DNA of 64,000 bases from Ascidiella aspersa (lineage: Eukaryota), in assembly GCA_963924565.1 (NCBI GenBank), contig OZ004614.1, forward strand, positions 23,126,001 through 23,190,000, given 5' to 3'. The translations under genes and the position numbers were made by a program. Positions 527 through 63,241 of this stretch are shown here, piece after piece; position 1 is the first letter of the stretch, and every line of letters begins with the position of its first letter. A model generated the notes under the pieces. The model was not told the DNA's origin and ran no database searches. It saw nothing but the letters and a program-made list of their open reading frames with translations.

Positions 527-711
527 TGAGCAGGTAAGTCCGTTCCAGCCCAAATCGCATACGCAGAGTCCGTTTACGCACGCTCCGTGTTCTGCGCACT
601 TCGCCGGGCACTGTTTGACATCGCAAGCGTCGCCCGTCCAACCGTCTTCGCAGCGACAAGTTCCGTCTACGCACGTTCCGTGTTCCGAGTGACAGGCCGG
701 CCTACAGACCG
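523..711 (-). CDS. TENM: Teneurin exon: EGF6-EGF7 (AVCRPACHSEHGTCVDG...GWNGLTCSF)
   Basis: 189 nt, phase 1-1; acceptor cccttcccgtgctgccgcag, donor G|gtgagg; two complete 6-Cys EGF repeats. An alternative upstream acceptor exists at 762/765. Confidence 0.92.
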
Positions 712-3700
712 CTGCGGCAGCACGGGAAGGGTGGTTGAGATTGGTGGAGCCCAACTTAAGGTCTACTTGGCGGTGTTTGTTTTTATGTTTTTTTTTTGTA
801 TTTTTAGGTATTTTTTGGTAATTTTTTTGGTATTTTTGGTATTATTTTGGTGTTTTTTGGCGTTTTTTTTTTGGTATATTTTTGGTAATTTTGTTGGTAA
901 TGATTTGGTATTTTTTGGTAATGTATTTGTGTATTTTTATGGCAGGATTGTCAATGTTTTGCGAAATAGTTTGTAGCAATATTGTTACATTTTTGTGGTT
1001 TATCCGAGGTAGCATTATGGTGAATTACAGTGTTGGTGGTTGTTAAATGGTGCATGGTGGCAATTTTTAGTGTTTTTTGTGGTTTGTGTCGTGGTGTGGG
1101 AAGTTTTAGGAGACGAGAGTTTGTATAATTGTCGGAGTATTAGGATTGTGTTTTTTTGGTATTTTGTGGTTTATTTAGTAGGTTATTTATGTATTTGTAA
1201 ATTTTATAATTCAGGTTTTACGGTTGTTTTAAAGTTGTGATCGGTAGTATAAATTGACAAAAGGGGTGGGCAAATTTGATGTTCCAATGCACAAACCATG
1301 CACGATTAATGGCGATTATTTCGATTTTGAAAACATTTACAATATCATCGCATATCAAACAGTCGGTTTTTGAGTTCGTTTGGCGTATTTTTTATGTCGT
1401 CGTGCAAATGAATAATGACCGTGTTGTACAAAATGGTTCGGGATTACGATTTTTCGGTGGTGGTTTTGTTAGGATGGCACGGCAAGCAAAATTAGGAAGA
1501 GAGAGGATGGGAAAGGAAGAAGGAAAAAACAAAAAAGAGAGAAAAATAAAAAAAGGTTAATACTACGTCAAAACCAAGGCAAATAAATATGCAAAAACAC
1601 TAGTTGTTTTCTATTAAACAAACACACAACAAACGAATTTTGATTCATTCATTTCTAAATGACCTCACTCAGAGAAATGACTGTTACATGCCAAGGTCAA
1701 AATATAAAAAAAAAATATCTAAAATGTTGCTATGTAAAAAGTTAGGTATTTTCGCTTTTAAATGGGCTGTAAAACATATATTAAGTTTTTTTTAATAGAA
1801 AACCTATAATATAAAACAAATCCAATTGCTTAAAATTAAAAAAAACATTAACAACTTATCATCAAAATCATGCACAAAAAACAAACAAAAACACAAAAAA
1901 CATTCAAACGACATTTGTCGCAAATTAAACAAAACGCATGACGCGTATTCGTGTCAGACAACAAATACGTCAAATGGTAAGTTTTAAGGGTGACAAAAAA
2001 TCAACTAAACATGCAGTGTGTGAAAGCTACCTATGGTAACACGACTGTTTGTTTATCTTTGTACTTTTTCTATGTTTTGCCTGTGAGCAATACGTTATGC
2101 AAACACAATGTAAGTTAAGTATTACTACCACCCAAATAGCAAACGGTTATATCTACTGAGCAATCAAGGATTGTGTGAAAGCGGTGATAAAACCACCAAG
2201 TTTTTAAAGTTACTAACTTGTCTAACTCTAGTTTACCTATTGCTAACAAATTACAAAACGGGAAATTGGGAAAAAATTGGAAAAGTCTATACGGTCGAGG
2301 ACTTTAATGTCATTAATTGAATTGCAGCCGGGGTCACCAATTGACACTACAAATTCATTTAAGTCCACGCGAAAGTGCACATTCAAAACAGGGGTAACTT
2401 TTTTAATAAAAATAAACAAAAAAGCAAAACAAGATGAGCATTTTCAATAAAATAATAATAATGCCATAATATTTAAAAAAAATCAGCATTCCGTTGTTTT
2501 CAAACGTTTTGGTAATACATCATGCAATCTTCAGTGTAAAAATTCAAGAAACGTTTGTGAACGTTCGTATTTTCGAAACGTTTAGTAAACAACGAAAAAT
2601 CGATTTTTTTCCAATATTAGTGCTTTATTATTTTATTACAATTACTAAGTAAACCCGTGTAGTACAAATAAAAAAACAGCTCCTCCGGTAATCATTCACC
2701 CTGACGAAGGCGACTAGCATAGGTTACCGGAACGTTGGTAAAAAATTACAATTACCAGAGGAGCTGTTTTTTAATTTGCATTACTATGCCTGGTAGCAAC
2801 AGTTTATATAAACCCGTGTATTGTGCTCAACGAGAGCACCACACTTACCGGTTCTACAGTCGCTACCGCCCCAGCCGGGGTAGCAGACGCACTTGGACGA
2901 CACTTTGTCGAAGATGCCGCGTCCACTGCAGTCAGCTGGACAGCTGGTGTCAGGTTCCTTACAGGTCACTCCGACCCAACCGCGGTCGCAGCGACACACT
3001 CCAGCAAGACACAGACCATGGCCGGAACAAGTCGGCTCCAGGCAGTCAACTGAAAAAAAAGTCAAGTCAGATTGAGCAATGTTTGTGAAAATTGCAGTTT
3101 TCTTGGGAGGTAAGATTTAGCTGTTTGCGCTAAAGAATGCAGGTAAACGTTTTTTTCTGCTCTATTACGGTGAGCTTTTCACATTAGATTTATAAATGTT
3201 TGAATCAAGAATATACAACAGTTTTCATTTGATTGTTGAAACTGATACTCTAGTAAAACCTTATTATAAACCACTTCTTCGCACAAGATTCTTTCATATA
3301 CTCCAAGAATAAGATTAAAATCATAATAAAACAAACTTTGAAATAAGATCGTATTATTACCACGATATTGTTGCCCTTTAGGCCTTAATGAGTGTTCCAA
3401 ACAAAACAAAACAAAACAAAACAAAACAACACGTCACATCACTCACTTTCTTCGCACGAAATTCCCTTGAATCCTTCCTGGCAGACGCACTCGCCGTCGG
3501 CGCCGCAGGTTCCGTGTCCGGCGCAGTCGGGCTCGATGCACTGGTCCGACTGGGTTCCACAGTCTACCCCCTTCCAGCCGGAGAAGCACACGCACTTCCC
3601 GTGCGCGTACACGCCGTTACCACGGCAGTGGATAGAACAGGAGACTGGTGAGACAAAAAAACGGTTCTGTTGTTAAATCTCTATTTAAGAGTCCTTTTTT

Positions 3701-27700: not shown

Positions 27701-30700
27701 TACCGTAAAGCGACCTTTAGGAACGATGCGTTTTGTTTGCCCGCTGCTAATAGATCAGTGAGTGTAGAGTAACTGGCGTTATCTGTTATGCTAATAGATG
27801 AGGCGCTCCATCAGTTATCGTGGCTATTTGAAACCCATCTGTTTTGTGAACCGCTATTCATTCTGCTGGTAAATCGTGCCCTGTCGATTGCTATACCCTC
27901 ATAACCTTACACTTTAAGCCAAAGCAATCGTTTAACCTAGAAAGTTACTTATACAGAAAAGTTAACAGAAATGTACAAACAGTCTTTTCAAACGGCAAAT
28001 TATTAAATTTCTACGAGAATATACTTCCTTCTGCTGTACGCGCTGATGATTCCGAAATAAAACATAAAAAACAAACACAAGTCCAACAACATCTGTTAAA
28101 CTGCGTTAAACACAGTGCAAACGAAAATTTAGAGCAAACCTTTAAATGTCGTTTCTTCCAAGAACGATTTGCACAACAAGTTTTCGGCTGAATTAAATTC
28201 CCGAGAGCGTTCACACTTCGACAGTCACAACTGTTTCTGACGCAAAAGCAACTGAAATCGACCGGGAATCGAACCGGCAATATAAGAGCGAATGCGCAGC
28301 GTGTGCGTTGAACGGGTTCGCGCCTATATGGTCATCATAAGCGAAATCCAAAACCCTAATTACTACAGCGGGTTGCAGGTGGCGTGCTAATAACGTGGTC
28401 GACTAGGGAAGGGACCACAACCCAGCGGGATGCAATGCATACACGCGATACGGGACCCGGTTCCAATATGCAGGCTTATGCGATCGATCAGTGTGCTGGC
28501 TTGGTAGGCCAGACAGCTGCTAGTCGAAACAAAATAGGCGTTCACTAAACTAACTGTATACGGGCTTTGGTATTCATTCTACGACCAACTAGAACCTCCA
28601 GTCATTGTCTTAAGATTTATTCGAAACATTCACAACTGGTACCTACTTCTGTATGGATTTATTCATTGTACGTCTATCTACAACTTCCAACCAATATCTT
28701 AAGATTTATTCATACTACATTCTTCTTGGCTTCTAGTGGTGAATTATATTCACTTTCTTCTTAAATCTGTAGTTGATGAGCCAGTTGTGAGAAGTTACCG
28801 AAAATACAAAAATGTTACTAAAAAGTCACTTTTCCTAAACGGTCCTTGCCTTTTAATAACACGAAACCAAAGTTAAGTAGATATTTCCCAACAGGGTAAA
28901 ATGTGCGTTTAAACTTCTCTCCAAAATATTTATGCAAAAAATTGGATGGAACACAGATGAACTGAAATTGGATCTTGGTTCCACTAAGTGTTATAGAAAC
29001 CGGTAATAAACTGCTGCCATAATCGTGTTATAGGCTTAGCAAAACGAATGACCCGGTTATAAACTGCTGTCATAACCCTTTTGCGAAGTCGAAGGCACGC
29101 AGAGACGTGGCTACTTTGATTTACGACTTTGCACCTGTTGGCTGCTGCAAAGGGGACAAATGTCACGACCTCCTACAGCGAAAAGCAATGAAGAGCGCTT
29201 ACAGAAAAGGTCGCGAAACACCCTTGGCTATTTCCGCGCTGTAACGACGCAACAAGCTGCTGACAATTACGCTCTTTTCACGCCCCTTATCGACGCGTTT
29301 TTTATTGCAACGAGCTCAATTTGCGTAAGACGGCCGCTACCCAACATTGTTACGTGATTATCCAAACTTGACTTAAAGTCATACGCAATTAATTGAAGGA
29401 AGTCGCTTTTGTACAGGCAAAACTGCCCATGGTTCAATAATTCAGTCTTAATTTATGGCAGTTCAAATTTTGGCAGATTTAAATCACAGATGCGACTTAG
29501 TTTTTTACCCTTTCAATACCTTAGGGACCATTGGCTTGGGGACCAAAAAGGTCGCGAAGCACCCTGGACTATTTTAGCTCTATTACGACGAACAAATTGC
29601 CGACAATTACGTTATTTTCACGCCCCCTAATTGGTGGCTTCGTACCCCCCCCTGGTCGCCAATGCGACGAAGAGACAGTAAATCATACATTTGTAGTCCA
29701 CCAACAAGCGTGGGTGCAAATTATTAACGGTGCCAATAGCGTTTAAAGGATATTAAATTGACCTGCATTATTGATGCGCTCGGTCGGGTAACAGTTGCCC
29801 TAAGTGCTTGGGTTACACCAATAAGCCGCGAACGTTAGAATGAAACAGAACACCAGGGCACGGCCTTTGTGGATTTTCAATCAATATCAAAGCCCATATA
29901 GCAAGATAGCTGGCATTTTATGAACGTTTCTATTAAATTTTAAGATACTTGAGGTTGTAGTTTGGCGTAGTAAGAATGTCAAAGGCCATACAGAAGTAGT
30001 CAGCATTTTATTTTGTTTACGTTTTAAATATTTCCTAAAGATTTTCGGCATATTCAACGACAGTGTTAAAAAGGAACTAAGAATTATCCAAAACGTTCAC
30101 AAAATGATATGATACCTACTTCTGTATGGGTTTTGATATTCATTCTACGTTTTACTACAACTTTAGATAGATAGATATGTATATTGTTAGGGAAGTAAAT
30201 TCCCAGGGAGCAGCGCAAGACCGTTAGGTCATCAAAGTCAGCCGCTCCTTGACCGCAATATCATCCGAATACATGGGCAGGTTACTGCAGGTATACAAAT
30301 TAATTTTTTATCTTAACTACAACTTCTAGTCATTATTCCACAGAAGGCATTGCATTGTCCAAACTTAGCCACAAAGAAAATTACATTACGACGGTTGTTG
30401 GGAGACGTTTAAATAATGTTATATATTTATTAAGTTGACTATTATCTTTGTAAAAAGTTAAATAAAGTTTCATTGTCCCTGACAATGCGCATTCTATTTA
30501 AACTCCCCCTCTTTCAAATTCACTCCTAAACTCATAAAAAAACTCACCGGATTTTGGAACAAGGAGGTTGCCGGAGTTTGCTCTCGCCATATAAGAGGAG
30601 CCACGTCTTCCTCCAAAGTGGAGGGGCTGTTGGGAAGAAGAAGAAGACGAAGAAGTCATCCTCTGATCAAGCAGAGGAGAAGACATCCTTCTTCTCGTGT

Positions 30701-33700
30701 TCAAAGGTCGCTGTTCCTCCTCGCGGTCAACTACGTCATCGAGATCCCGGATGACGTCATCGTCGTCAAGGTCGCTCTCCGATGACGCGTTGCCAAGCAA
30801 CTGGCGGCGGTTGCTAGGGTGGTTGCCAGGCGACGGCGGCGCCCCGAAGCTGTCGGCCGCGACGGGCTCGTAGCGAACCGAGGAGCGGTGCGTGTCGCTT
30901 GACGAGATACCTGGATTGTTACGTCATAGTTAGTCGTTTGTTCGAAGAAGTATTTGAATGTAAACATTACAAGGCTGTTGGTGCCTTCAAAGCTTGTGAC
31001 TGGTTAAGACTAGTCCAGAGGCCAATAAACTACGACGTGGCAAGTCAATTAATCCGGCCCGCGGCATATTTCCTTAATGAAGATGAACTGCACTTAAAAT
31101 GGTGTCCAATGCAATTCAAAACTAAATCTTAATGAAATTTTAACCGACAATTTATTCAGGCCCAACTACAGGTGTTATTGCATAGTTATTTATATTCCCT
31201 TCTTTGAGTTAATAACTTTATTATCTGTAAATCTTAACAGTTATTCGGCCCGCGATGGTCAGGCCTTACAGTTAACCGACATTTACGAGAAAAGTTAGGC
31301 GATCCTGGGCCAGACAATGTTGAGTGTGTCTAGATAAGATAAATAAAAGGAAAACTTACAAGCTTCCTAAAATAAAGTGAAAACATACAAACTGGGATGC
31401 ACGAAAACAAGGCACCGATCAGGAAAAATGTGAAGAAAACTAGCAACACTCAACCGACATTCCGCGAACCGCCGACTGTACACTTTAGGAAACACGCACA
31501 AAAAAACATCCTACAACTCGAACTCACTTTCTAGAGGCAAAACATATCAAAAACAACACAGAAAACAAGACAAAAGGACAACATGACGTCATCACGTGGC
31601 CAGTGAACCGTGACAGGAACAACACGAAAAACAACATCCCACAGCTCAAACTTAATATTTAGCCGCAAAACATAACAACAACAACAACAAAAACAAACAA
31701 CAAGGCCCGACATCGATTAAAACAAGACAGGGTAAAAACAGACAACATGACGTCATCACGTGACCACTAAACCGTGCAGTCAGGCATGAGTACCTCTATG
31801 ACGTCGTCCCGAGTTAAGGCAGGCCACTGTTCTATACTTTGCCCGATGGAGGCCTTTTGCCTTGCTCGACTGTATTTCGTACAAGCGGCAGCCCTTGGTG
31901 TTGCCGGCCAGAAAGTGGAATTCCTTTAGATCTGGCGGACACACGGACAGTAGTAGTGACAAGGGCACAGACAAACGTATGACGACTGCTACTAGAAATT
32001 ACTTTTTGTGGTATGACCGAAATACAAGTTTTACTTCTCTAAGTAGTAATAAAGGGATTACTTTTAGCTTTTTAAAATAAAAAAAATGTTTTTTTGATTT
32101 AAAGGGCATTGTTGTTTAAATTTGGGACTCAAGATAGAAATACGGTTACCTACTTAAATTGGTGAACGTTTTATAAATAAATAAAATGGTAATAACAAGG
32201 TGTTGGAATTTCAAGTTGCAAGCCAAAGATATCTAAACGATCTGATTAAAGACACCGAACGTATCAGCATCGAAAATCCGTTTTTGCGTGCGTTTGCAAC
32301 AAAAAATCTGCAAAGTGCGCAGATTACAATTCCACCACGTTCATTACCGCAGGAACGCTATTAACAGTCTACAGTGAACGCCGGTCGGTCGGGCTATGTT
32401 TACTGAAGCAACACTAAACAGTCCTTGCATTTGTGGTACATAATCGCATCATTTAGGAACGTTTAGTTGGAAGATATAAGCGCGCCTTGTAGCGGAAAAC
32501 CGGACCGTTTGAAAGGCGGCTTAGATCTACCCGCAAAGCAATGCATTTCAAGACACTACCTGTCCTTATTGTTGGATGGGAGATTTTACCGGGTTCAAAA
32601 CGTGACTGCGGATGGGTTCTATCAACAATAAAGCCTGAACAAGACGCTACGGATTTGTTTCTTTGGGAACAAAGTTCTCAATGTAATTTCAATTTTTAGG
32701 CTTGTACTGTACAAATTACATAGAGCGGAAAATCATCATCACAGTATTAAGGTAGTAAGACTACCAAAGCTCATGTTATAGTAGGTAGCATTTTGAACGT
32801 TTGGACTAACTTGTTATTTATTTTCATAGAGTTATTCGAAAATGCTACCCAGTACCCACATCTATATGGGCTTTGAAATTCTTACTACGTCTAACTGAAA
32901 CCTCCAACCAATATGCCCAATGCAAGTATCCCGTCCCCAAATGCTTTTCAGTCGTAAAAGTTGACTGATGACACCGGGTTGAGTCAAGTCGTACCAATAA
33001 AAAAAAACAGACAATACAAAACAAAATAACCTCGGCCCCTTGTAATCTAAATCTAGAAATTAAAGACTACAGCAATCCGCGTGAAAGTATAACTGGTATT
33101 AATACGTCGGAAACTGGCTTATTTAAGACAAAAAACAACAATCGGGCGATAATCGTTAGTCGATCGAGTATCTCAAAGACATACCTCAGAATTTCACCAA
33201 TTAGCACACAACTTCAGCAATAACCACCATAGGGCAACACGGGGTGTCATTAGTTAATTTTTATGTTGAATATTTGCAAAACCAAAACCTCTAAAATTCA
33301 GAAGCAGTCAATGAAAAAAGTCTACCAATCTAACCGCGTCTCTGCTGCACAACCGTCACGCGTAAATAGCTCCACTGTGACGTATGAAAGCAATCTAACT
33401 GTCACCCCCCCCCACACATCACCCCCCCCATTTCAAAAACGTCGGTATCACCTTGCAGAGGCGCGGGCGGGGCAGTTTCCTCTTGTAGGCAACTCACAGA
33501 AGGCGGCAGCACCAGGCTATGGCGCCAACGCACGCGTTTCAAGTCGAACAGAGCCTGAACTGCCGGCGAGCGCTGGCGCGACATTGCAGCCGCGTCCAAA
33601 CTAACTCTGCGGGAAATGAGGGGCCTGTTATGCCGCAGAACGATTTGTAGCTTGTCGGCCCCTGTATCGGTGAGACGCACCAGGGCGCCGCCGTCTTGCG

Positions 33701-36700
33701 GCTCCGCTGCGACCGCCATTTCGCGCTGGGCGCATGGCCCGGCGCCGAAGCTGGTCTCGAGGCCGATCTTGGCGCTTTCGGCGCCGCCCGACCCCTGGCC
33801 GCCCGGTTCCAGCGGAAGACAGGGCACCCCGGCGCTCAGAGAAAGCTCCCCTAGGAATTATTCTTTTTCTTGTGGATCGAAACAGCAGCAGTGCAGAGCA
33901 CTGAATCCTTAAATTCGTTGCTTTTAAGAAGTGTTTGAAGGAAGTAAAACAACCTTCCAGGTGCGATTTGAAACAGCAGAAACGACCACGTATTTATATC
34001 CGCGAAACTTTAGGCTCCCAGAAATTCTCAGAAGCGTTCTTCAGAGGTAAACAATATTCCAGATAAGTGTTTTTAAAGAGCAGCAAGAATAGAGTTACTG
34101 ATATCCGCAAAAACTTTAGGCTTTCATGGAGTCGTTTAATCGTTCAGAGCAGAGGCAAAATGTTTTAAGAGTTCACACCATAATTAAGAGGTAAAACAAA
34201 TTACAGGTTTTAAAACAGCAGCAAGAATGTCGCACTGAGAAATCCACAAAAAACTTTATACTTTCATCAAGGCTTAAAACGTTGAGAGAAGAGGTAAAAT
34301 GTTTCAAAAAGAGTTTCACAGCATTTTCAGAACGTTCAGAGTTGGCAGAAGCGTTTTACTGCTTTTTAGCAACGTTCAAAATAAAAACTTCCTATAATCT
34401 TGCCTACGGTGGTGGTCTGCAAAGCAACAACTGCTTTACGCGGAAAATAAATACGTCAGCGCTTTTCAACGGGCAACGAAAGCACTCTACAGGCCGTAAA
34501 ACGAGTGAATTGTCGCGCAAATGAGGCAATTAATCTTAGCTTTGACGCGACGGCCCGAAGGCCCAATTTGACCGGCCGGTTCTGAAAAGAACGCTTGGCT
34601 TCGTTAGTTCAGGTGTGCTTTATTCTCAGTTGTTTTTTGTTTATTTTAATTAAATTAATCGACTTATTTTTTTCGCTAATTTCCAAGATAAAGGTGTGTT
34701 TTAATAATGAATTGCAAAGCCAAAAGGGTCGAGGCATTGTCACATTGACTGAAGATGGTACAGGTGCATTTTCAAAACGTCTAAATCAGAATGATGTCGA
34801 TCTAATCCACCTTTTTGGCTTAACAGTTCATTATCAAGCTACATTACAGATCCGTACATAACATAGTGTGCCCAAACAGGTTTATTTTGAAAAAGGAGCA
34901 TCTATTTCAAACATTTTTTTAACGTTCTAGGTTAATTCAATTTAAAGCGGAATAATAAATACGATTAAAATAGGGTTGCGTATGCATCTCTACTTAAAAA
35001 CGTTGCGTCAACTGGCATTATAGGGTGGCGTAAAGCGAAAAACAACAGCTAGGCACAATCTGACTTGTTTTCGGATGGGAAAGTTAGCCCAAACATGCCA
35101 AGCTTCTTATGATAAACCTCTTCAGCACGTTTAAGGCCGTCACAATAAGACCTCGTACGATTTGCAGTGGTTGTTGTCCCATAGACTTGCGTGAAAAGCC
35201 ATTAAGCTCTTTGTTTGTGCGACACGCCAAAGACCCTGTTTTAATCCTTGATTTTCATTTTAACGTATAATTAATCCTTTATTGTTGGACGTAACTGAAA
35301 TATAACTACTAACAAAACTAAACACAGTAGAACGATCTAGTCAATTTAGGTTTCAGTTGGCTTATAACCTAGGTTAGACAGAAATTAGTCGCTATAGCGA
35401 AAACGACGCCATTTTTGATTTGCGAATTGTTTTTTAATTTGAGACATTATTTTTGATTTGCGACATTATTTTTCAATTTGCGACATTATTTTTCAATTTG
35501 CGACATTATTTTTCAATTTGCGACACTCTTTTTTAATTTTCGACACTCTTTTAATTGGTGACATGACTTTTTTGAATTTGCATTGCCTTATTTTTCAGCC
35601 CCTAATTTTTTTCCCAGCCCCTCCAAGGGTCCCCACGTACCCCCGAGTTTGAGGGGGAGATCGATGTCGCGCGCTGACTGGAGTGCGCGACACGGTGACG
35701 CCCCGCGCGACACTGAACCAAAACGGCGTCCGTTGAACCATACCACCGCGCTAGCATAACTGGCATGCTCACAAATCTGTGAGTCGCGGCTCCCCTGAAT
35801 GGCCTTGTTTTTAGAGGGCCGTTTTTTGGTTCTGTGGCCGACTTTTAAGACTATTTTTCAGACCAGAATTTCGAGTAAAGCTGGAAAAGTAACTCTACCG
35901 CATTTTAAGCTGCAAGTGAAAAATCAATAAAATTTACAAAATAGGACCGGCGGTTTTAAATCTACCCAAGTTCATGATGTTAATCTCGGCGAAATATTGT
36001 TTTCAAATATATAACACTGACTTTGAAAAGATCTAATAGAAGTCTGGCATTGCATTTTTGTTTTGTTTTGTATGCAAACTACCAACTAACTTACTTAAGA
36101 CTTACGAGCTGTTTAAGGCAGGAAGTTTACTGCCATTGTAATGCACTTGTCGGACAAAATAAATCGCACTAATTGACTGCAGCCCTCAACTAACTAAGGA
36201 GAGAGTACAGACTGATTTTTCCGGGGGGCTTAACTAAAAATCCAAACCCCGGCGCCTTCCGTATCGAATTGCCAGTTCACGCTACATCAAACAACTTCCA
36301 GCCAAGCCAACTCTCAGGGCTTCTTGGCCGGTAGAAGCGAGAGGACAGACTGTCACGCTTCTCCAATTAACAAGAGCTGGCTTGGCTGGCTGCTGGATCT
36401 GCTGAGCGTCCCACGGGTCTACACCACCGCGGTATATACGGTTTCCACAAGCTAGCAAAGAAATCGGCTCTGCACTCTAAGCAAGCAGCACCAGCAGCAG
36501 TAGTTAAAGCTACAGTTGCGCAGAGCTAAATAAGCCGTTATACGGCATTCGTCAGTGCTTCATGCGCCTTCTGGTTTCCAAGCTGGCAAAGAAACCGGAT
36601 TCGCACTCTAACGTGCGGTAAATATAAGCACTGAGCACTGATCACACATATGAAGCACTGATCACTGCCGTATAACGGCTTATCCGGCTCTGCGCGACTG

Positions 36701-39128
36701 TAGCTACAACTACTGCGCGGTATATACGGTTTCCACAAGCTATCAAAGAAACCTACTCTGCACTCTAAGCGTGCAGAAGCAGCAGTAGTTGTAGCTACAG
36801 TTGCGCCAAGCCGAATGAGCCGTTGTACGGCAGTGATCAGTGCTTCATGCGCCTTCTAGGAATCACGAGGCCCCGGGCTGGCGGCCGTCTTCGTCGCTTG
36901 GCCGGCGGTTTCTCATCACCGGGGAAAGCGCGTAAGGTGATTAAAGCACTCGGAAGAGATCGAGAGATCACCGCTTCCAGTGAAACGACTTGATGTGATG
37001 GCCGGTGCTGGTTGGGGATTAGACGAATTAGCGGCCGGTGGTCAATTTTGTTGCTTTATTGCCGGTGTAACTGCTAGTGCTGATGCTAAGAAGAAAGACG
37101 ATCAACACTGCGGAATAGCGTTGTACGATACTCTCGATTTTTTTTTCGGATACCGATACCCGATATTTTGGACGAAAAGTATCGGCCCGACACCGAAATT
37201 ACGTCTTTTTTATCCTAATATTTAAAATTCTAAATTTCAAAACGTTAAAAGCACTTTATTTAGGTTATTAGGCTCAAATTTACTTTAACGTTACGAAGTG
37301 TACCTCCAGTTGTTAGGCAAATTTTTTGGACGTTCAAATCGAAATTTTTCTGACATTTTTTGACATTTATAACTTTAAACTATCTACAGCTTCTTTTAGT
37401 CCACTCTTGACACTTTAGATTGCTTGATAGAGTCACATGTCTCTTCTTCTAACAGCGCGGCGTTAGTTCGTGTCGCAAAACATCAGCAACTTATTAAACT
37501 GGAAGCATCGCATTCCAGATAGCAGCATTTCGACAGGAACACCCACGTTCCGGGCAACCAATACACGTCACACAACACGCAAACAGATAAGACAGTGACG
37601 CACAAACCCTTATCGCATACTGGCATCTGCCCAGCGTCCCACAACAGGTAGAAACGCCGGTCTAATACAATGTAATTACCCCTGGTGCGTATAAACGCAC
37701 ACGGAACACAATAGGCGACACATGTGTCGCTAATAAGAGCAACAGAGATGGGCGACATATGTGCCGCGTGTCGCGAGCGGAGACAGCGCGCTTTTAATCC
37801 CGAATTTAAAGCGACACCCTTCCGGCTTTATTGGGTATTTGAACCTGTTAATAAGCGTGAACTCACAGATAAGAAGGCAATAAAAAAACGAGCAAGTGAC
37901 ATCTACTTTTGTATGGGCTTAGATATTCTTACTACGACTTACTGAAACCTCCAACTATTATGCTCCAAAGGTTAAAAATATTTTAATTTAGAGCATTATA
38001 TTTGTTCAAAGTTTAACAATTTTTACCAAAATTCTCCACACATTTTGATCAGTGAATAAAAAAATTAGCAGATCTGAATATCTCTAAAAAACCTCCCCTA
38101 AAAGCGGGGGAAGATACAAATATCTATGGTTCATATGTATATATAGATATCTATATTTACAGGTCTGTCCCAAAGGGACCAGTAGACTGACAAGCGTCCA
38201 TATATGAGCGCCAACAAATTAGCGCAGTCCCCCGTTGGTTTTCACCGGCTGCCTAAAGCGCATATTAAAGATGCGATACTAGACATAGTATTATCCTTGC
38301 CTTAAACCCGCCCAGCCAGCAAAACGCAAACAAACTAGCACGAAGAGTTTGCGCAGAAACGGTGTAAGGCCTAATCGCCGCAAACACAGACGAAACATCA
38401 GCGACGGGTAAGATTGCGCCAAGATGTTTGCGGGGAACCTTCAGCCCACTGAGATAAACAACTGGTCGGTGCTGATAACACGTGGCCTACGGGTGTAGTG
38501 ATGAGCATTTAAATTCCGGAGCCGCTTGAAGAGATATAGCAGGGTTGGCAAGTGAATTTATGAACAAAATGCAAAGATTTTTCCACGAAGATAATGATTT
38601 GCAAAGACAAAAAAGATCAAGTAGATCGACAAATCATTACTTATAAAGGTGGGACGCAATTGTTATTGGACGCAAATTGTTATCGCCTACTCGAAGTTTT
38701 TGGCTTTACAATTTATTATCAAGCTAGGTTACAGATCCGTGCATTAAGTGTATAAAAGAAGAGTTAAATATTTTTGAAAACCTAAAATGGATCGCTCGAC
38801 GTTTTTTGAATATAATTGAGAAACAAAACAGTGCAAATACCAATTAAGAGGTTAAAATGTAAGCTCTATATAAAAAACTTCTCACGGATAGATTGTACAA
38901 AACACAAAACGACTTAAACTCAGCCAAACAATTCAAAAAAGCATGCCACAGACATATCTCAATATTCAAGTTGTAACGGGCGGTATACCACCCAGATGTA
39001 ATCGATGTTATATCACCCTTCTGTAATCGAAGGTTACCTGAAGATTCGGTGTCGGTGTAGCTGGTGTTGGCCTTGCGGTCCCTCATAACTGGACCTGCAG
39101 TGGTTTCGGCCCTCATACCGCAAAACAT
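523..39128 (-). CDS. TENM: Teneurin (Ten-m/Odz), spliced 5' portion: join of 39038-39128, 30548-30910, 25805-25935, 25126-25277, 12726-13084, 10800-10904, 10032-10210, 4576-4822, 4117-4218, 3447-3644, 2849-3049, 523-711; continues beyond window start
   Basis: All junctions are GT-AG with matching phases (1,1,0,2,1,1,0,1,1,1,1,1) and no stops. Architecture is a ~340-aa intracellular domain, one TM helix, an Ig-like region and tenascin-type EGF repeats, with Cys3 missing in EGF2 and EGF5. Confidence 0.93.
768..1562 (-). promoter_or_regulatory. AG-exclusion zone with distant branch point (TATTAAC, A at ~1557) and polypyrimidine tract (~1495-1556)
   Basis: No CT on the + strand (AG on the sense strand) between 767 and 1563 despite ~55 C residues; ~60-nt pyrimidine tract immediately after TATTAAC. 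Confidence 0.8.
1669..1680 (-). CDS. Candidate 12-nt microexon between EGF5 and EGF6 (V-I-S-L)
   Basis: ttttttatattttgaccttggcatgtaacag|TCATTTCTCTGA|gtgagg; frame-preserving in the phase-1 intron. Confidence 0.5.
   Translation of the reverse strand, partial: SFL
2660..2786 (+). mobile_element. Penelope-like relic: minimal hammerhead motif (2697-2741) inside a ~33-bp inverted repeat
   Basis: acc-CTGACGA-A-ggcgac...gttacc-GGAA-CG-TT-ggt; arms aaaaaacagctcctccggtaat / attaccagaggagctgtttttt. Confidence 0.6.
2849..3049 (-). CDS. TENM: Teneurin exon: EGF4-EGF5 (DCLEPTCSGHG...CSGRGIFDKVSSKCVCYPGWGGSDCRT)
   Basis: 201 nt, phase 1-1; ttttttcag acceptor, gtaagt donor; EGF5 has Phe in place of the third Cys. 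Confidence 0.95.
3447..3644 (-). CDS. TENM: Teneurin exon: EGF2-EGF3 (VSCSIHCRGNGVYAHGKCVC...GFKGISCEE)
   Basis: 198 nt, phase 1-1; tctcaccag acceptor, gtgagt donor; EGF2 has Tyr in place of the third Cys. Not in the ORF track in this frame. Confidence 0.95.
3860..4020. mobile_element. Inverted pair of the same hammerhead-bearing repeat, degenerate
   Basis: Minus copy ttgacctgataagcacggttgcgcgaaagcttgt (3871-3905); plus copy taacctaaagaaggacggttgtgcgaaagcttgtc (~3980-4015). Confidence 0.65.
4117..4218 (-). CDS. TENM: Teneurin exon: EGF1 ([33 protein letters not shown])
   Basis: 102 nt, phase 1-1; tgtttgttgcag acceptor, gtaatt donor. Confidence 0.95.
4576..4822 (-). CDS. TENM: Teneurin exon: Ig-like region with RKRR furin motif (FNFFERIDAD...VNTGFMEYMEPGTWHLAVFNDG)
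   Basis: 247 nt, phase 0-1; ttttcacttccag acceptor, gtcagc donor; resembles the teneurin '[20 protein letters not shown]' motif. Confidence 0.94.
10032..10210 (-). CDS. TENM: Teneurin exon: Ig-like region (PIQVLQFRRTSPFEVAPGAFRWMQIYVEEP...VYGRKGLRPSHTK)
   Basis: 179 nt, phase 1-0; tctctag acceptor, AAG|gtgggc donor; resembles the teneurin 'VPPGVFW..Q...LKFN.SL...A..GVYGRKGLPPSHTQ' motif. Confidence 0.94.
10800..10904 (-). CDS. TENM: Teneurin exon: juxtamembrane extracellular linker (LFNSSTTVIEVDDPLLCGS...KQG)
   Basis: 105 nt, phase 1-1, open; ctttaaag acceptor, GAG|gtaaag donor; occupies the position of the post-TM 'GLNW' linker exon. Confidence 0.8.
12296..12486 (+). mobile_element. tRNA-derived SINE-like element (copy 1)
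   Basis: B-box ggtcgtgagttcgaacctc followed by agttgttttct and 3' gggcttgatcacag, shared with the copy at 16240. Confidence 0.6.
12726..13084 (-). CDS. TENM: Teneurin exon: end of intracellular domain plus transmembrane helix (FWRRCSWRCAAVSFIVLSLLLGVALLAFLL)
   Basis: 359 nt, phase 2-1; ttttttccatcaccacag acceptor, gtgagt donor; the CSW(K/R)C motif before the hydrophobic helix is typical of teneurins. Confidence 0.93.
13300..13445. repeat. Degenerate ~21-bp tandem repeat (gggtcaaaaatgggtaaac..)
   Basis: Recurring gggtca / gggtaaa units. Confidence 0.7.
15667..15935. repeat. 26-bp minisatellite, ~10 copies (ataaaattagcccccgaatgtgggtg)
   Basis: Exact 26-bp period at 15841, 15867 and 15893; degenerate toward the 5' side. 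Confidence 0.95.
16205..16410 (+). mobile_element. tRNA-derived SINE-like element (copy 2)
   Basis: ggaggtcgtgagttcgaacctc B-box; 3' ggggctagatcacag. Confidence 0.6.
23076..23332. mobile_element. Non-autonomous hAT-type MITE, degenerate
   Basis: cagtgtttctcaacc 5' end, degenerate 3' TIR, TSD cattaaag / cattaaac. Confidence 0.75.
25126..25277 (-). CDS. TENM: Teneurin intracellular-domain exon (TPSSVMTSRVAAPLTPETDQYDP...GTDSDR)
   Basis: 152 nt, phase 0-2; ccccgttttag acceptor, AG|gttagt donor; GC-rich island in AT-rich intron; phases fit both neighbours. Confidence 0.85.
25805..25935 (-). CDS. TENM: Teneurin intracellular-domain exon (ATSSSNDPRHHPGLP...SLYSQQ)
   Basis: 131 nt, phase 1-0; tttttcaccccag acceptor, CAG|gtaaaa donor. 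Confidence 0.85.
26031..26191. repeat. Long imperfect palindrome (foldback MITE-like)
   Basis: tttgtttggatgttacatga ... tcatgtaacatccaaacaaa, with arms extending ~65 bp each side. Confidence 0.8.
30548..30910 (-). CDS. TENM: Teneurin intracellular-domain exon (ISSSDTHRSSVRYEP...SSESDLDDDD...GNLLVPKS)
   Basis: 363 nt, open, phase 1-1; aatccag acceptor, CCG|gtgagt donor; acidic and Ser-rich with PxxP. Confidence 0.85.
31017..31306. mobile_element. Degenerate hAT-like MITE (CGGCCCGCG subterminal motifs)
   Basis: atccggcccgcgg and ttcggcccgcga motifs; 3' end aaagttaggcgatcctg; TSD unclear. Confidence 0.5.
31389..31391 (-). CDS. Candidate 3-nt microexon (TTT)
   Basis: gccttgttttcgtgcatcccag|TTT|gtatgt; TGC near the 3'ss. 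Confidence 0.35.
31528..31530 (-). CDS. Candidate 3-nt microexon (AAA)
   Basis: tgttgtttttgatatgttttgcctctag|AAA|gtgagt; TGC near the 3'ss; ~110-nt AG-free UG/pyrimidine-rich upstream zone. Confidence 0.45.
31794..31931 (-). CDS. Candidate cassette exon in teneurin intracellular domain (DLKEFHFLAGNTKGCRLYEIQSS...RRHR)
   Basis: 138 nt, phase 1-1, open; tgtccgtgtgtccgccag acceptor, GAG|gtactc donor (moderate). Confidence 0.5.
33452..33850 (-). CDS. Candidate teneurin cassette or alternative first exon (133 codons, ELSLSAGVPCLP...APPAPLQ)
   Basis: GC-rich 399-nt open frame; ttcctag acceptor in phase 1, AAG|gtgata donor in phase 1; in-frame ATG at 33719; TATAAATA at 33991-33998 upstream. Confidence 0.55.
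33991..33998 (-). promoter_or_regulatory. Candidate TATA box (TATAAATA) upstream of the 33452-33850 exon
   Basis: Consensus match ~140 nt upstream of the GC-rich open frame; no other support. Confidence 0.3.
35405..35585. repeat. 20-bp minisatellite, ~8 copies (cgacattatttttcaatttg)
   Basis: Exact copies at 35461, 35481 and 35501. Confidence 0.95.
36428..36858. repeat. Local direct duplication with an inverted internal copy
   Basis: 36428-36572 repeated at 36716-36858; reverse-complement segment at ~36649-36716. Confidence 0.85.
39038..39128 (-). CDS. TENM: Probable first coding segment of teneurin (MFCGMRAETTAGPVMRDRKANTSYTDTESS); exon probably starts at 39316
   Basis: ATG with an in-frame TGA upstream; CAG|gtaacc donor in phase 1; strong acceptor ctttttcccgctccattgcag at 39317. 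Confidence 0.6.
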
Positions 39129-57395: not shown

Positions 57396-60300
57396 TTACT
57401 ACGATTTGTTGTTTTTCATGTCGTATTACAGGCATCAAATAAAATGAATGTGAACTGGTTTAATTATTTGGATTCAACTTCCAGCAGAGCACGGAATGCA
57501 AACACAGACCACTCCGACTTTGTTTAACTTGGATTTCCAAGTCAGAAAAAAAGGCTCTTGTTGGAGGTTGGTGGTCGCTTGTTTCAATATAGGGGCAAAC
57601 ATTGGTTGGTTAAAGTGAAAAAGACTTCCAAATTCGACAGGGCCACCGCACGAATAACGCTGTACAGGGATTTCGCACTTTCGTGAGTCAGCGAGCCGTG
57701 TTTATCAAGTGGAAACTGTTATCAGTTCCATTAGGGTGACCTCAGAACATTTAAACAGCTGACTTAACAGCAGGGCGTTTCTTGTTTTGGGGTTTTAGAC
57801 TGGAAAAAAGTAAAAATATTTTAAATGCTATTTACAAAATGACGTCACTCGCTTATAACTCAGCTGGTTGCCTTCAAAAAACGACTTTTTAGAGACTAGA
57901 TATGGCCGTTTCGCGAAAATATTTATTTCAAGATTCTATAAAATGTCAAACTTTATTTACAATAGAAAAGTTAAATGAATAGTTGGTTCAATTTGAGGTC
58001 ATTGTCGTCATTTTTGCAAGAAGGACGAACATTGCTGTCAACGCAAAAAACGCCAAATAAAGCCAACTGCTTGCGTTACGAAGGGCGACCGACGGGGTTA
58101 CACGGGTATTTGCGCAAAATTACGTCATTTCAAGAGCGGCAAATCCAAACGTAAACACACCACCAGCAGTCGGGCGATATCAACTGCGACAAGAAACAGA
58201 AAAAGCGGGAAGGTCAAATGACCCGAAAAGCCTTTCTCCCCGGCACTCTAATACCCCTAGTCCCCCTTTTTGACTGGAATGGGGCGGAAGGCGGTAGGTG
58301 GGGCTTTTGTTTTTGCGTCTGAAATAGCACGCCAGGGAAATCCGAAAAAGTTATTCGCTGCTAATGTTGCTAACACCGTCCGACAATTTCTAGTCGGTTA
58401 ATCATTTATTTGTGACCCTAGAAAGGTGTAGTCAATACAAGGACTGTGTAAAAATTCCAACTCTGTAAGGTCACTGTTATTTGCCATTTGCGTACTTTAA
58501 TTACGGGCATGTTTTGCACTTGTGCACTTAAGCAGTTGTGAATTTTCGGAGGAACATTAAACACACCTTCGGAATGAAGGTGAACATGATCTATGGCTCT
58601 TTTTAAAGATGGTGACTCCCAGTTTATATCGTTAAAGTTTGAACTTGTTGGCTCGACAGTCAAGGGTGACAATCGCTAAATATTCAGATTTAGTAATATT
58701 CATTTTTTTTTTTTAATATTTTTGGCTAAAAGTGAAAAAAATACAAAAAAATTGCTGAAAAGCTTTAGCCAATACCAGGACTGTGTAAAAAATTTAATAT
58801 CTGTAATGTCACAACTTTCAGGGATATTGGTCTATAAACATCTCGGCGCGCTTATTTCGCTCAGGTCATTTTGGGGAGCGTCAAGGCCGCTGTGGGCGTT
58901 GATAGCGACGGGGCCGTTTGGTTTGTCTGATGCAGTTTATTTTATTTGTTGAGGTATTTTTGTATGCTGGCGAGATATGGGTTCTACTGATCTGTAAATG
59001 AATCTAATGCAGCCTACTTTTAAATTTGGGCTGTTTATAAAAGCTACGTTTTCTGTTTTTAAACACAATATTATTAAGAGAAAAAAGTTTTGTTTTCGAG
59101 TATCGCACTCACGGATTTTACCCTGTTAAAATGCATATAATAAAACACACATCCTATAAAGGTACGGACAGGACTATAGGCCGAAATTAGATTCCCATGT
59201 GACAGATCAGCTCTGTCATGTTCCGCTCCAAATTACAGGGTTTAAAATGCGCCCGTGACCCTTCAGACTTCCGTCCTTGGCGTAAACAGAGAAGAGAGGC
59301 GGCGAAAGCGTAAAAATTCACCAAATCGTCACGACACGCAAAAGCCAGGGCTTAAATTCGTCTGGACAGTTCCAATTCCGCGCTTCGCGATGACAAACGA
59401 GGCACAGGCGTCCGAAAAATATTCAGTAAGAGCCCCGTCGCCGATTTTCATCTCTCCGCGGCCTTAACTGTGCTTTGTCAAGGTAAGCCGACACCCAGGC
59501 TGGGGATCCGGTTTTTCAAAGACGCCAGTGGCCATTACGCAATGCGTGACGTCATTAATTCAATGCCCTGGCACTTTTACATGTGTCCGAGGGCTAATCC
59601 GTCGACCCGTGTGTGTCAGGGCGCTATTACAGGGTCTAGTTTCGCGCGAAATTGGCCCCGGAGTGAATCAGAACGATGCCCCCCCTCCCCCTCCCCCTCC
59701 CAGCTCGAAAAATGACGGCGCTTTTGATTTGGTTGTGTGATTTATTTTAAAGGCATGAAAAAATCATCATACATATTTAACAAGACAAGTTATATTTGGA
59801 AGCGTAATGGCTTGAGTTGAGGTTGTAGATAGATGTAAAATTAAAGCCACATAGAAGTTGGTTGCATTTTATGAAAGTTTATCAATATTTAATCAAAGCG
59901 TTCACATAATGCCACTTAATTTTGTACAGGTTTCGATAAGTAATCTACGTACGACATATGTTGTTTTTTTCTTTTATCAGTTTGCAAGGGTCATTTAAAA
60001 GCAGACCTTCATCCGCTTAACATGCATACTCAACTTTTTAGTTAAAAACAGTAAGTAGCAAAAATGGCCTTATTTGTTCTGTAAACATCACACAGATCTG
60101 AATTATGCTTAGCAAAGCTGACAGCGAAAAAAAAAATTTCGGAATTTTGTATATATTCGGTTCGCCATTACATCAAATTACTCGGAGTGAATCACGGCAA
60201 ATTGGAGCGTCGCGACGGTCTAACAATGCCGCCAGAGAGGACACTCAAAAAAACCGTGATAACGACAATCGATTTTTTCTCTTCAGCTGTGAAGAAGCGT

Positions 60301-63219: not shown

Positions 63220-63241
63220 CGGACTGAAGCGTCTTCGGCAT
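63220..63241 (-). CDS. Candidate distal alternative first coding exon (MPKTLQS-)
   Basis: aaagtATG context; 22 nt ending in CCG|gtgagt, phase 1, compatible with the exon at 30910; lies within a GC-richer block (63220-63600). Confidence 0.45.

Follow-up and report, generated by a model that had tools for sequence, protein, structure and literature searches.

A candidate 3-nt microexon in the intracellular part of the teneurin gene of the ascidian Ascidiella aspersa

Neural microexons of the SRRM3/4 (eMIC) type, described in vertebrates and in Drosophila, are the class that the short exon candidates reported here resemble most. A long AG exclusion zone and a UGC motif near the 3' splice site are named as features of eMIC targets in the accessible parts of two reports (PMC8797185; 10.1101/2024.09.17.613571). 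In the teneurins, the microexons described in the available text of earlier studies are extracellular and concern inserts in the EGF and NHL/beta-propeller regions (PMC12626420; PMC7195488), and the variants of the vertebrate teneurin intracellular domain (ICD) are given as whole cassette exons (PMC3278476, as far as its accessible text goes). The texts on teneurin splicing that our literature search returned, as far as they were accessible, describe no 3-nt ICD exon, and a similar search for a tunicate eMIC, with the same restriction, yielded no paper. Microexons of another kind are known from Ciona, where the Z5/Z6 exons of Agrin, of 5-6 codons and under the control of Nova, have been verified by cDNA, according to the part of the report that is available (PMC12445529).

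The window analysed by us is a stretch of 64,000 nt of the A. aspersa genome (C8:23,126,001-23,190,000). It is crossed by a gene on the minus strand, the exons of which at low window coordinates match teneurin families (Pfam GBD_Tenm3 over the cut-off, and EGF_Teneurin). In tblastn comparisons the whole gene is collinear with the teneurin of Phallusia mammillata, from at least 51 kb upstream to about 20 kb downstream of the window; among named proteins the closest one in the whole-gene comparison is that of Phallusia, and the best named match of the last exon is that of Ciona savignyi. The gene has the EGF repeats, the galactose-binding domain and the C-terminal region after the transmembrane exon that characterize teneurins. 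Pfam Ten_N gave no match at this gene, and its control was blank as well. The assignment made in a first-pass annotation of this DNA is borne out by these families, by the collinearity and by ascidian protein models: judged from sequence comparisons, the gene is an ascidian teneurin, and the cluster of candidate units lies in its intracellular part. One EGF exon begins with two in-frame AGs separated by 51 nt (window positions 711-762), and at the matching place a 13-residue optional piece distinguishes Ciona and Clavelina models.

The organization of the intracellular part centres on one coding exon (30548..30910, minus strand, phase 1 start, 64% identity to Phallusia P0047), named here the hub exon, which is fed by several alternative upstream exons. 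It is present in 26 of the 28 Ciona intestinalis, Clavelina and Phallusia proteins compared, the Ciona part of which comprises 15 of the 18 Ciona cluster members, and its upstream partner varies between them. In a protein search with the hub exon, no score was obtained for any of 327 candidates, and an atlas search gave no usable hit. Upstream of it, on the same strand, we located an alternative first coding exon at 33452..33719, with 61% identity to the N-terminus of Ciona P0050 and a phase 1 donor, and another one at 39038..39116, which ends in YTDTESS, an end motif that by eye is as in Ciona P0052 and Clavelina P0069. A short stretch at 63220..63241 (minus strand; ATG, 7 codons, phase 1 GTGAGT donor) is a possible further first coding exon by its letters; short first exons of similar length occur in Ciona and Clavelina models, the likeness being one of length only. 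An exon located still farther, 51,049 nt upstream of the hub exon (L013:7960-8494), is the counterpart of a further upstream partner in the models and ends in AAAG. Two Ciona models, P0060 and P0058 (X1 and X2 of one annotation), are of equal length and have N or T at residue 554, just past the hub-exon region.

Nearest to the hub exon is a conserved cassette exon of 138 nt (31794..31931, minus strand), which encodes 46 codons of a basic peptide with two Cys residues, an F-x-F-L-x-G...C-R-L-Y-E motif and a basic tail (tblastn 43% to Ciona P0055, E 5.5e-5). It has no Pfam match and is optional, being in or out in the Ciona models X1/X4 and the Clavelina models X3/X4. The gene resembles the vertebrate teneurins, as far as the accessible literature describes them: both have optional ICD exons, as well as alternative starts, in the part between the first exons and the transmembrane exon. 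Even if none of the short units discussed below is used, an architecture of cassette and hub exon common to three other ascidian genera is thereby mapped. All the candidate units are within the 883-nt intron between these two exons, and a 3-nt exon there would belong to the ICD, in contrast to the extracellular microexons of teneurins known from the available reports.

The first-pass annotation had listed four AG-x-GT units in this intron, and each of them is indeed found there on the minus strand. Donors were scored as the number of matches to CAG/GTRAGT out of 9, with 11 donors of this gene, which score 5-8, as the reference set; a twelfth donor, set wrongly by one base, was excluded. The best of the four units is AAA (31528..31530; ctag-AAA-gtgagt), with a donor of 8/9; a real exon of this gene, the EGF exon that ends at 3447, has the very same donor 9-mer. 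Its acceptor is preceded by a TGC at -9 and by an AG-free, U/G-rich tract of 112 nt (31533..31644, minus strand). A possible second 3-nt microexon, TTT (31389..31391), has a TGC at -10, an AG-free zone of 46 nt and a weak donor, GTATGT, the score of which (5/9) is at the low end of the gene's range. The 7-nt unit (31360..31366) has a GTAAGT donor (7/9) and a TTTTAG acceptor with no TGC; an inner AG would reduce it to a 3-nt CTT unit at 31360-31362. The 21-nt unit (31455..31475) does read VGGSRNV in frame, as had been proposed, and its donor (3/9) is below the range of the gene, its nearest TGC is at -23 and another AG is present 5 nt before its acceptor. Given the phase 1 start of the hub exon, the frame is preserved by three of the four units, the exception being the 7-nt one, which leads to a stop at codon 34. 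The claim of three frame-preserving units with a nearby TGC is therefore right as to the frame of all three and as to the TGC of AAA and TTT, and wrong as to the TGC of the 21-nt unit. Of the proposal that close spacing makes some of the units mutually exclusive, what survives is the geometry of TTT and the 7-nt/CTT unit, candidate exons 22 nt apart and the only ones certainly too near each other for joint use; AAA and TTT are 136 nt apart.

These properties may be compared with those of eMIC targets. The length of 3-27 nt, the AG/GT borders and the kept frame are found in AAA, TTT and the 21-nt unit and not in the 7-nt one; UGC near the AG together with a long AG exclusion zone is found in AAA and TTT and in neither of the other two; and the strong 5' splice site is found in AAA, with TTT weaker and the 21-nt unit failing. 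The eMIC-type look that had been attributed to the cluster thus holds for AAA, less so for TTT, and does not extend to the 21-nt unit. AAA is like the SRRM3/4 microexons also in its host, a neural adhesion gene, and in the presence of an eMIC-like gene in the genome. It differs from them in that the tract before it is UG-rich rather than UC-rich, which we counted against it, in that no UCUC motifs or strong branch point were seen (a simple pattern gives the weak branch-point-like strings TTGAT at -20 of AAA and CTGAT at -31 of TTT), and in that the units are in young tandem duplications. We regard AAA, known here from its sequence, as a candidate member of this class, with the odds about even.

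The putative regulator has a possible counterpart in the genome. A whole-genome search with the SRRM_C profile gave nothing over the cut-off of 27 bits; on contig C4, however, profile positions 27-55 and 54-66 are matched by two adjacent in-frame exons (18.9 and 13 bits, both below that cut-off). The first of them, the best match on this contig, is bordered by a donor at its end; the second, 2.4 kb further on, completes the profile. Three exons of this stand-alone eMIC-like gene with a split SRRM_C (G000:C4, about 342,467-345,999, plus strand; L068:9467-9543, L069:388-498 and L069:2936-2996) splice in frame into an Arg/Ser-rich stretch with a stop. The eMIC domain of Drosophila is likewise split over two exons, according to the accessible part of its description (PMC8797185). 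A TATA-like box is present upstream of the C4 gene; a first exon guessed for it was rejected as being in the wrong frame. None of 136 candidates proved to be an annotated relative of the eMIC-like exon. The gene is separate from an Srrm2-like, cwf21-bearing gene on contig C2 (L064:7239-9896, about 32.0 Mb, minus strand), the single long exon of which, of 885 codons, has no SRRM_C match. About 800 nt downstream of the latter gene is a convergent ORF, which we take to be eIF2B-alpha-like. The occurrence of the eMIC-like gene in this genome makes the proposed regulator plausible, and a tunicate microexon programme becomes testable in Ciona-type embryos.

The patch that harbours the units was built by two local duplications, one producing a pair of about 160 nt and the other a pair of 29 nt. 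In the former, the AAA-bearing unit (31462-31616) has an upstream tandem copy (31617..31780, minus strand), in which AG and GT are replaced by AA and TT around the place matching AAA (31656-31658), leaving no exon there; this dead copy, devoid of both splice dinucleotides, was counted against AAA as an exon. In the latter, the 7-nt unit duplicates the TTT unit, at an alignment score that none of 1000 shuffles attains, and the view of the cluster as four independent exons is not supported. No significant homology was found between the AAA and TTT units (P 0.57-0.71), and a single duplication therefore does not account for both. A hairpin around TTT and the 7-nt unit (arms 31319-31333 and 31440-31454) was rejected, being no better than in shuffles (z -1.13). 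Just downstream of the cluster there is a dispersed repeat (31080..31300), with at least 49 genome matches, 40 of 207 candidates having been scored.

Chance was assessed in the 461-nt T/G-rich patch with 3000 dinucleotide shuffles, for which the intron sequence was taken one base too short. The pattern YAG-N3-GTRAGT occurs once vs. 0.011 expected (P 0.011), and with GTATGT admitted as an alternative donor, a choice made after the data had been seen, twice vs. 0.019 (0 of 3000 shuffles). YAG-N21-GT, in turn, occurs once vs. 1.2 expected (P 0.74), and at this chance-level count and with its donor of 3/9 we judge the 21-nt unit to be probably a chance match. TGC is not enriched in the patch (8 vs. 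8.1). When the 51,049 nt that separate the hub exon from the far upstream one are filtered most strictly, two sense sites are left, both in this cluster, and no antisense site; looser filters give 17 sense vs. 7 antisense and 43 vs. 20 sites, which means that weaker look-alikes are common. In the long upstream intron, positions 59113-59122 of the window have the form cag-10 nt-gtgagt with a T-rich tract and a TGC, and are frameshifting.

The expectation that the units are used in RNA is not supported by the transcript-like data and protein models. Data set X3, the kind of which is unrecorded, behaves like RNA: a 2010-nt contig of depth 23 is confined here to the hub exon, beyond which it continues in other sequence, and the intron pieces of X3 have a depth of 2-5. 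The match of this contig extends over 30910 and 30911 as far as 30912. By the logic of contig building, such an end would be expected if the hub exon is spliced directly to a main upstream exon with AG as its last letters, as is the case for the exon at L013:7960-8494; AG is the final dinucleotide of no unit among the four, and an included candidate would produce a branch at 30910 or 30911. The X3 contigs show no inclusion and weakly favour direct splicing without an insert, with the reservation that contigs drop rare variants and that the cassette exon is also at zero depth. The part of the X4 raw RNA run that was covered, about 6% or 1,177 million letters, has zero reads on the hub exon itself and is uninformative on the junction. 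None of the 26 ascidian protein models that contain the hub exon has an insert at its junction; annotation models often miss 3-nt exons. A metagenome scan for the orthologous intron retained one of 144 stretches, which proved to be bacterial and to match by chance. In the region 31369-32600 the X2 contigs have nearly zero depth and X1 covers it, which may reflect a filter or a divergent haplotype.

Taken together, we favour, with a probability of about 0.5, the reading in which AAA is a real 3-nt alternative microexon, the TTT/CTT pair possibly supplies another, and the 21-nt unit is a chance match. For the units singly, the use of AAA as an exon is an even bet, that of TTT or CTT is doubtful, that of the 7-nt unit is unlikely, and that of the 21-nt unit is very improbable. 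AAA would be skipped by default in most cells, and in neurons the eMIC protein may allow its definition by way of the UGC at -9 and of the long U-rich tract devoid of AG. Its inclusion would turn the junction Gly into Glu-Ser (RRHR-G-ISS to RRHR-ES-ISS), and the predicted residues are VC for TTT and AC for CTT; the single-residue tuning suggested earlier is thus only approximate, as a 3-nt exon in phase 1 swaps one Gly for two residues. When the cassette is included, the junction reads R-x-R-x-x-S, with the first hub Ser preceded by Arg at -3 and Lys/Arg at -5, and these two positions are common to all three genera with the cassette (that of this species, Ciona and Clavelina). The pattern is presumably an AGC-type basophilic kinase consensus, and an insert would push this putative site out of register. 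Use of AAA would mean that, in the sister group of vertebrates, a synaptic adhesion protein has a one-residue switch in its inner tail, a region still little understood, and the birth and loss of microexons by duplication would be readable within one intron. A more far-reaching version, in which a lineage-specific array of AAA, TTT, CTT and one dead copy, born and lost by tandem duplication, changes Gly to ES, VC, AC or EIC and switches the cassette-made R-x-R-x-x-S site under the control of the stand-alone tunicate eMIC gene, seems to us quite unlikely as a whole.

A different role of the patch is suggested by the cassette exon, which the first-pass annotation overlooked. Its location 263 nt upstream of AAA offers a rival reason for the U/G-rich and YCAY-rich tract, namely, that no unit is an exon and that the patch is a duplicated intronic enhancer of the Nova, CELF or ELAV type acting on the cassette, its low A content giving rise to AG-free zones and splice-like strings by chance. 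We consider this a tentative but credible alternative. The T/G-rich patch begins about 20 nt past the cassette donor; the first 223 nt after this donor contain seven YCAY motifs (31583..31790, minus strand; 7 vs. 3.3 in shuffles, P 0.004), which are putative Nova-type sites, and TGTT occurs 26 times vs. 16 in shuffles. The 26 models without an insert and the background frequency of the motif in the genome agree with it as well. Nova drives the inclusion of the Ciona Agrin Z exons through downstream YCAY clusters, as stated in the accessible text (PMC12445529), and those exons and the units described here are alike in being short ascidian exons, or candidates for such, missed by annotation and in having intronic YCAY clusters, although here the cluster follows the cassette and precedes the candidates. 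On the other hand, the YCAY excess is in part one duplicated motif, and two non-homologous 3-nt units with good donors would be unexpected from composition. The enhancer role and a microexon are not mutually exclusive and can coexist.

It is rather improbable that the donors are decoys, at which U1 bound to GTGAGT or GTAAGT modulates cassette splicing, or that the 7-nt exon is a poison switch directing the message to decay by a frameshift. The cleaner acceptor of the 7-nt unit, its donor of 7/9 and the stop at hub codon 34 would suit such a function, but its recent origin from the TTT unit by a 29-nt duplication and its lack of a TGC do not. Least probable, to the point of being hardly credible, is that one donor belongs to yet another short first exon, an alternative to those above that E-box/CRE-like elements would drive: the CACGTG/TGACGTCA pair is duplicated at 31583-31596 and 31747-31760 and in models of Ciona and Clavelina the hub exon is joined to several first exons, but there is no X3 depth, and the nearest ATGs before the donors, inspected by eye, are in phase 0 or run into a stop, where the hub exon needs phase 1.

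Returning to AAA as a microexon, its surroundings were compared with those of similar strings in the whole 308.6-Mb genome, with the motif TTTTGC-N1-8-YAG-Nn-GTRAGT and the reversed motif as a control. The counts were 34 vs. 31 for n=3, 31 vs. 26 for n=5 and 45 vs. 42 for n=6, that is, at background, and the motif by itself proves nothing. The 112-nt AG-free zone of AAA is the longest among the 34 N3 matches and exceeds all 29 N5 controls (maximum 63; 29 of the 31 matches, two duplicates having been left out). A filter for pyrimidines and AG-free length, set by hand, is passed by 4 of the 34 three-base and 1 of the 29 five-base matches. The count for n=4 (169 vs. 27) was set aside, since it is due to one repeat family, members of which carry a perfect TTTTGC..CAG-N4-GTAAGT in far more than 100 copies on many contigs and are a source of false microexon calls. 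The second-best 3-nt candidate genome-wide is a TTT unit in L024 (G000:C1:10,990,825-10,990,844, plus strand), with a GTAAGT donor and a 95-nt AG-free U-rich tract.
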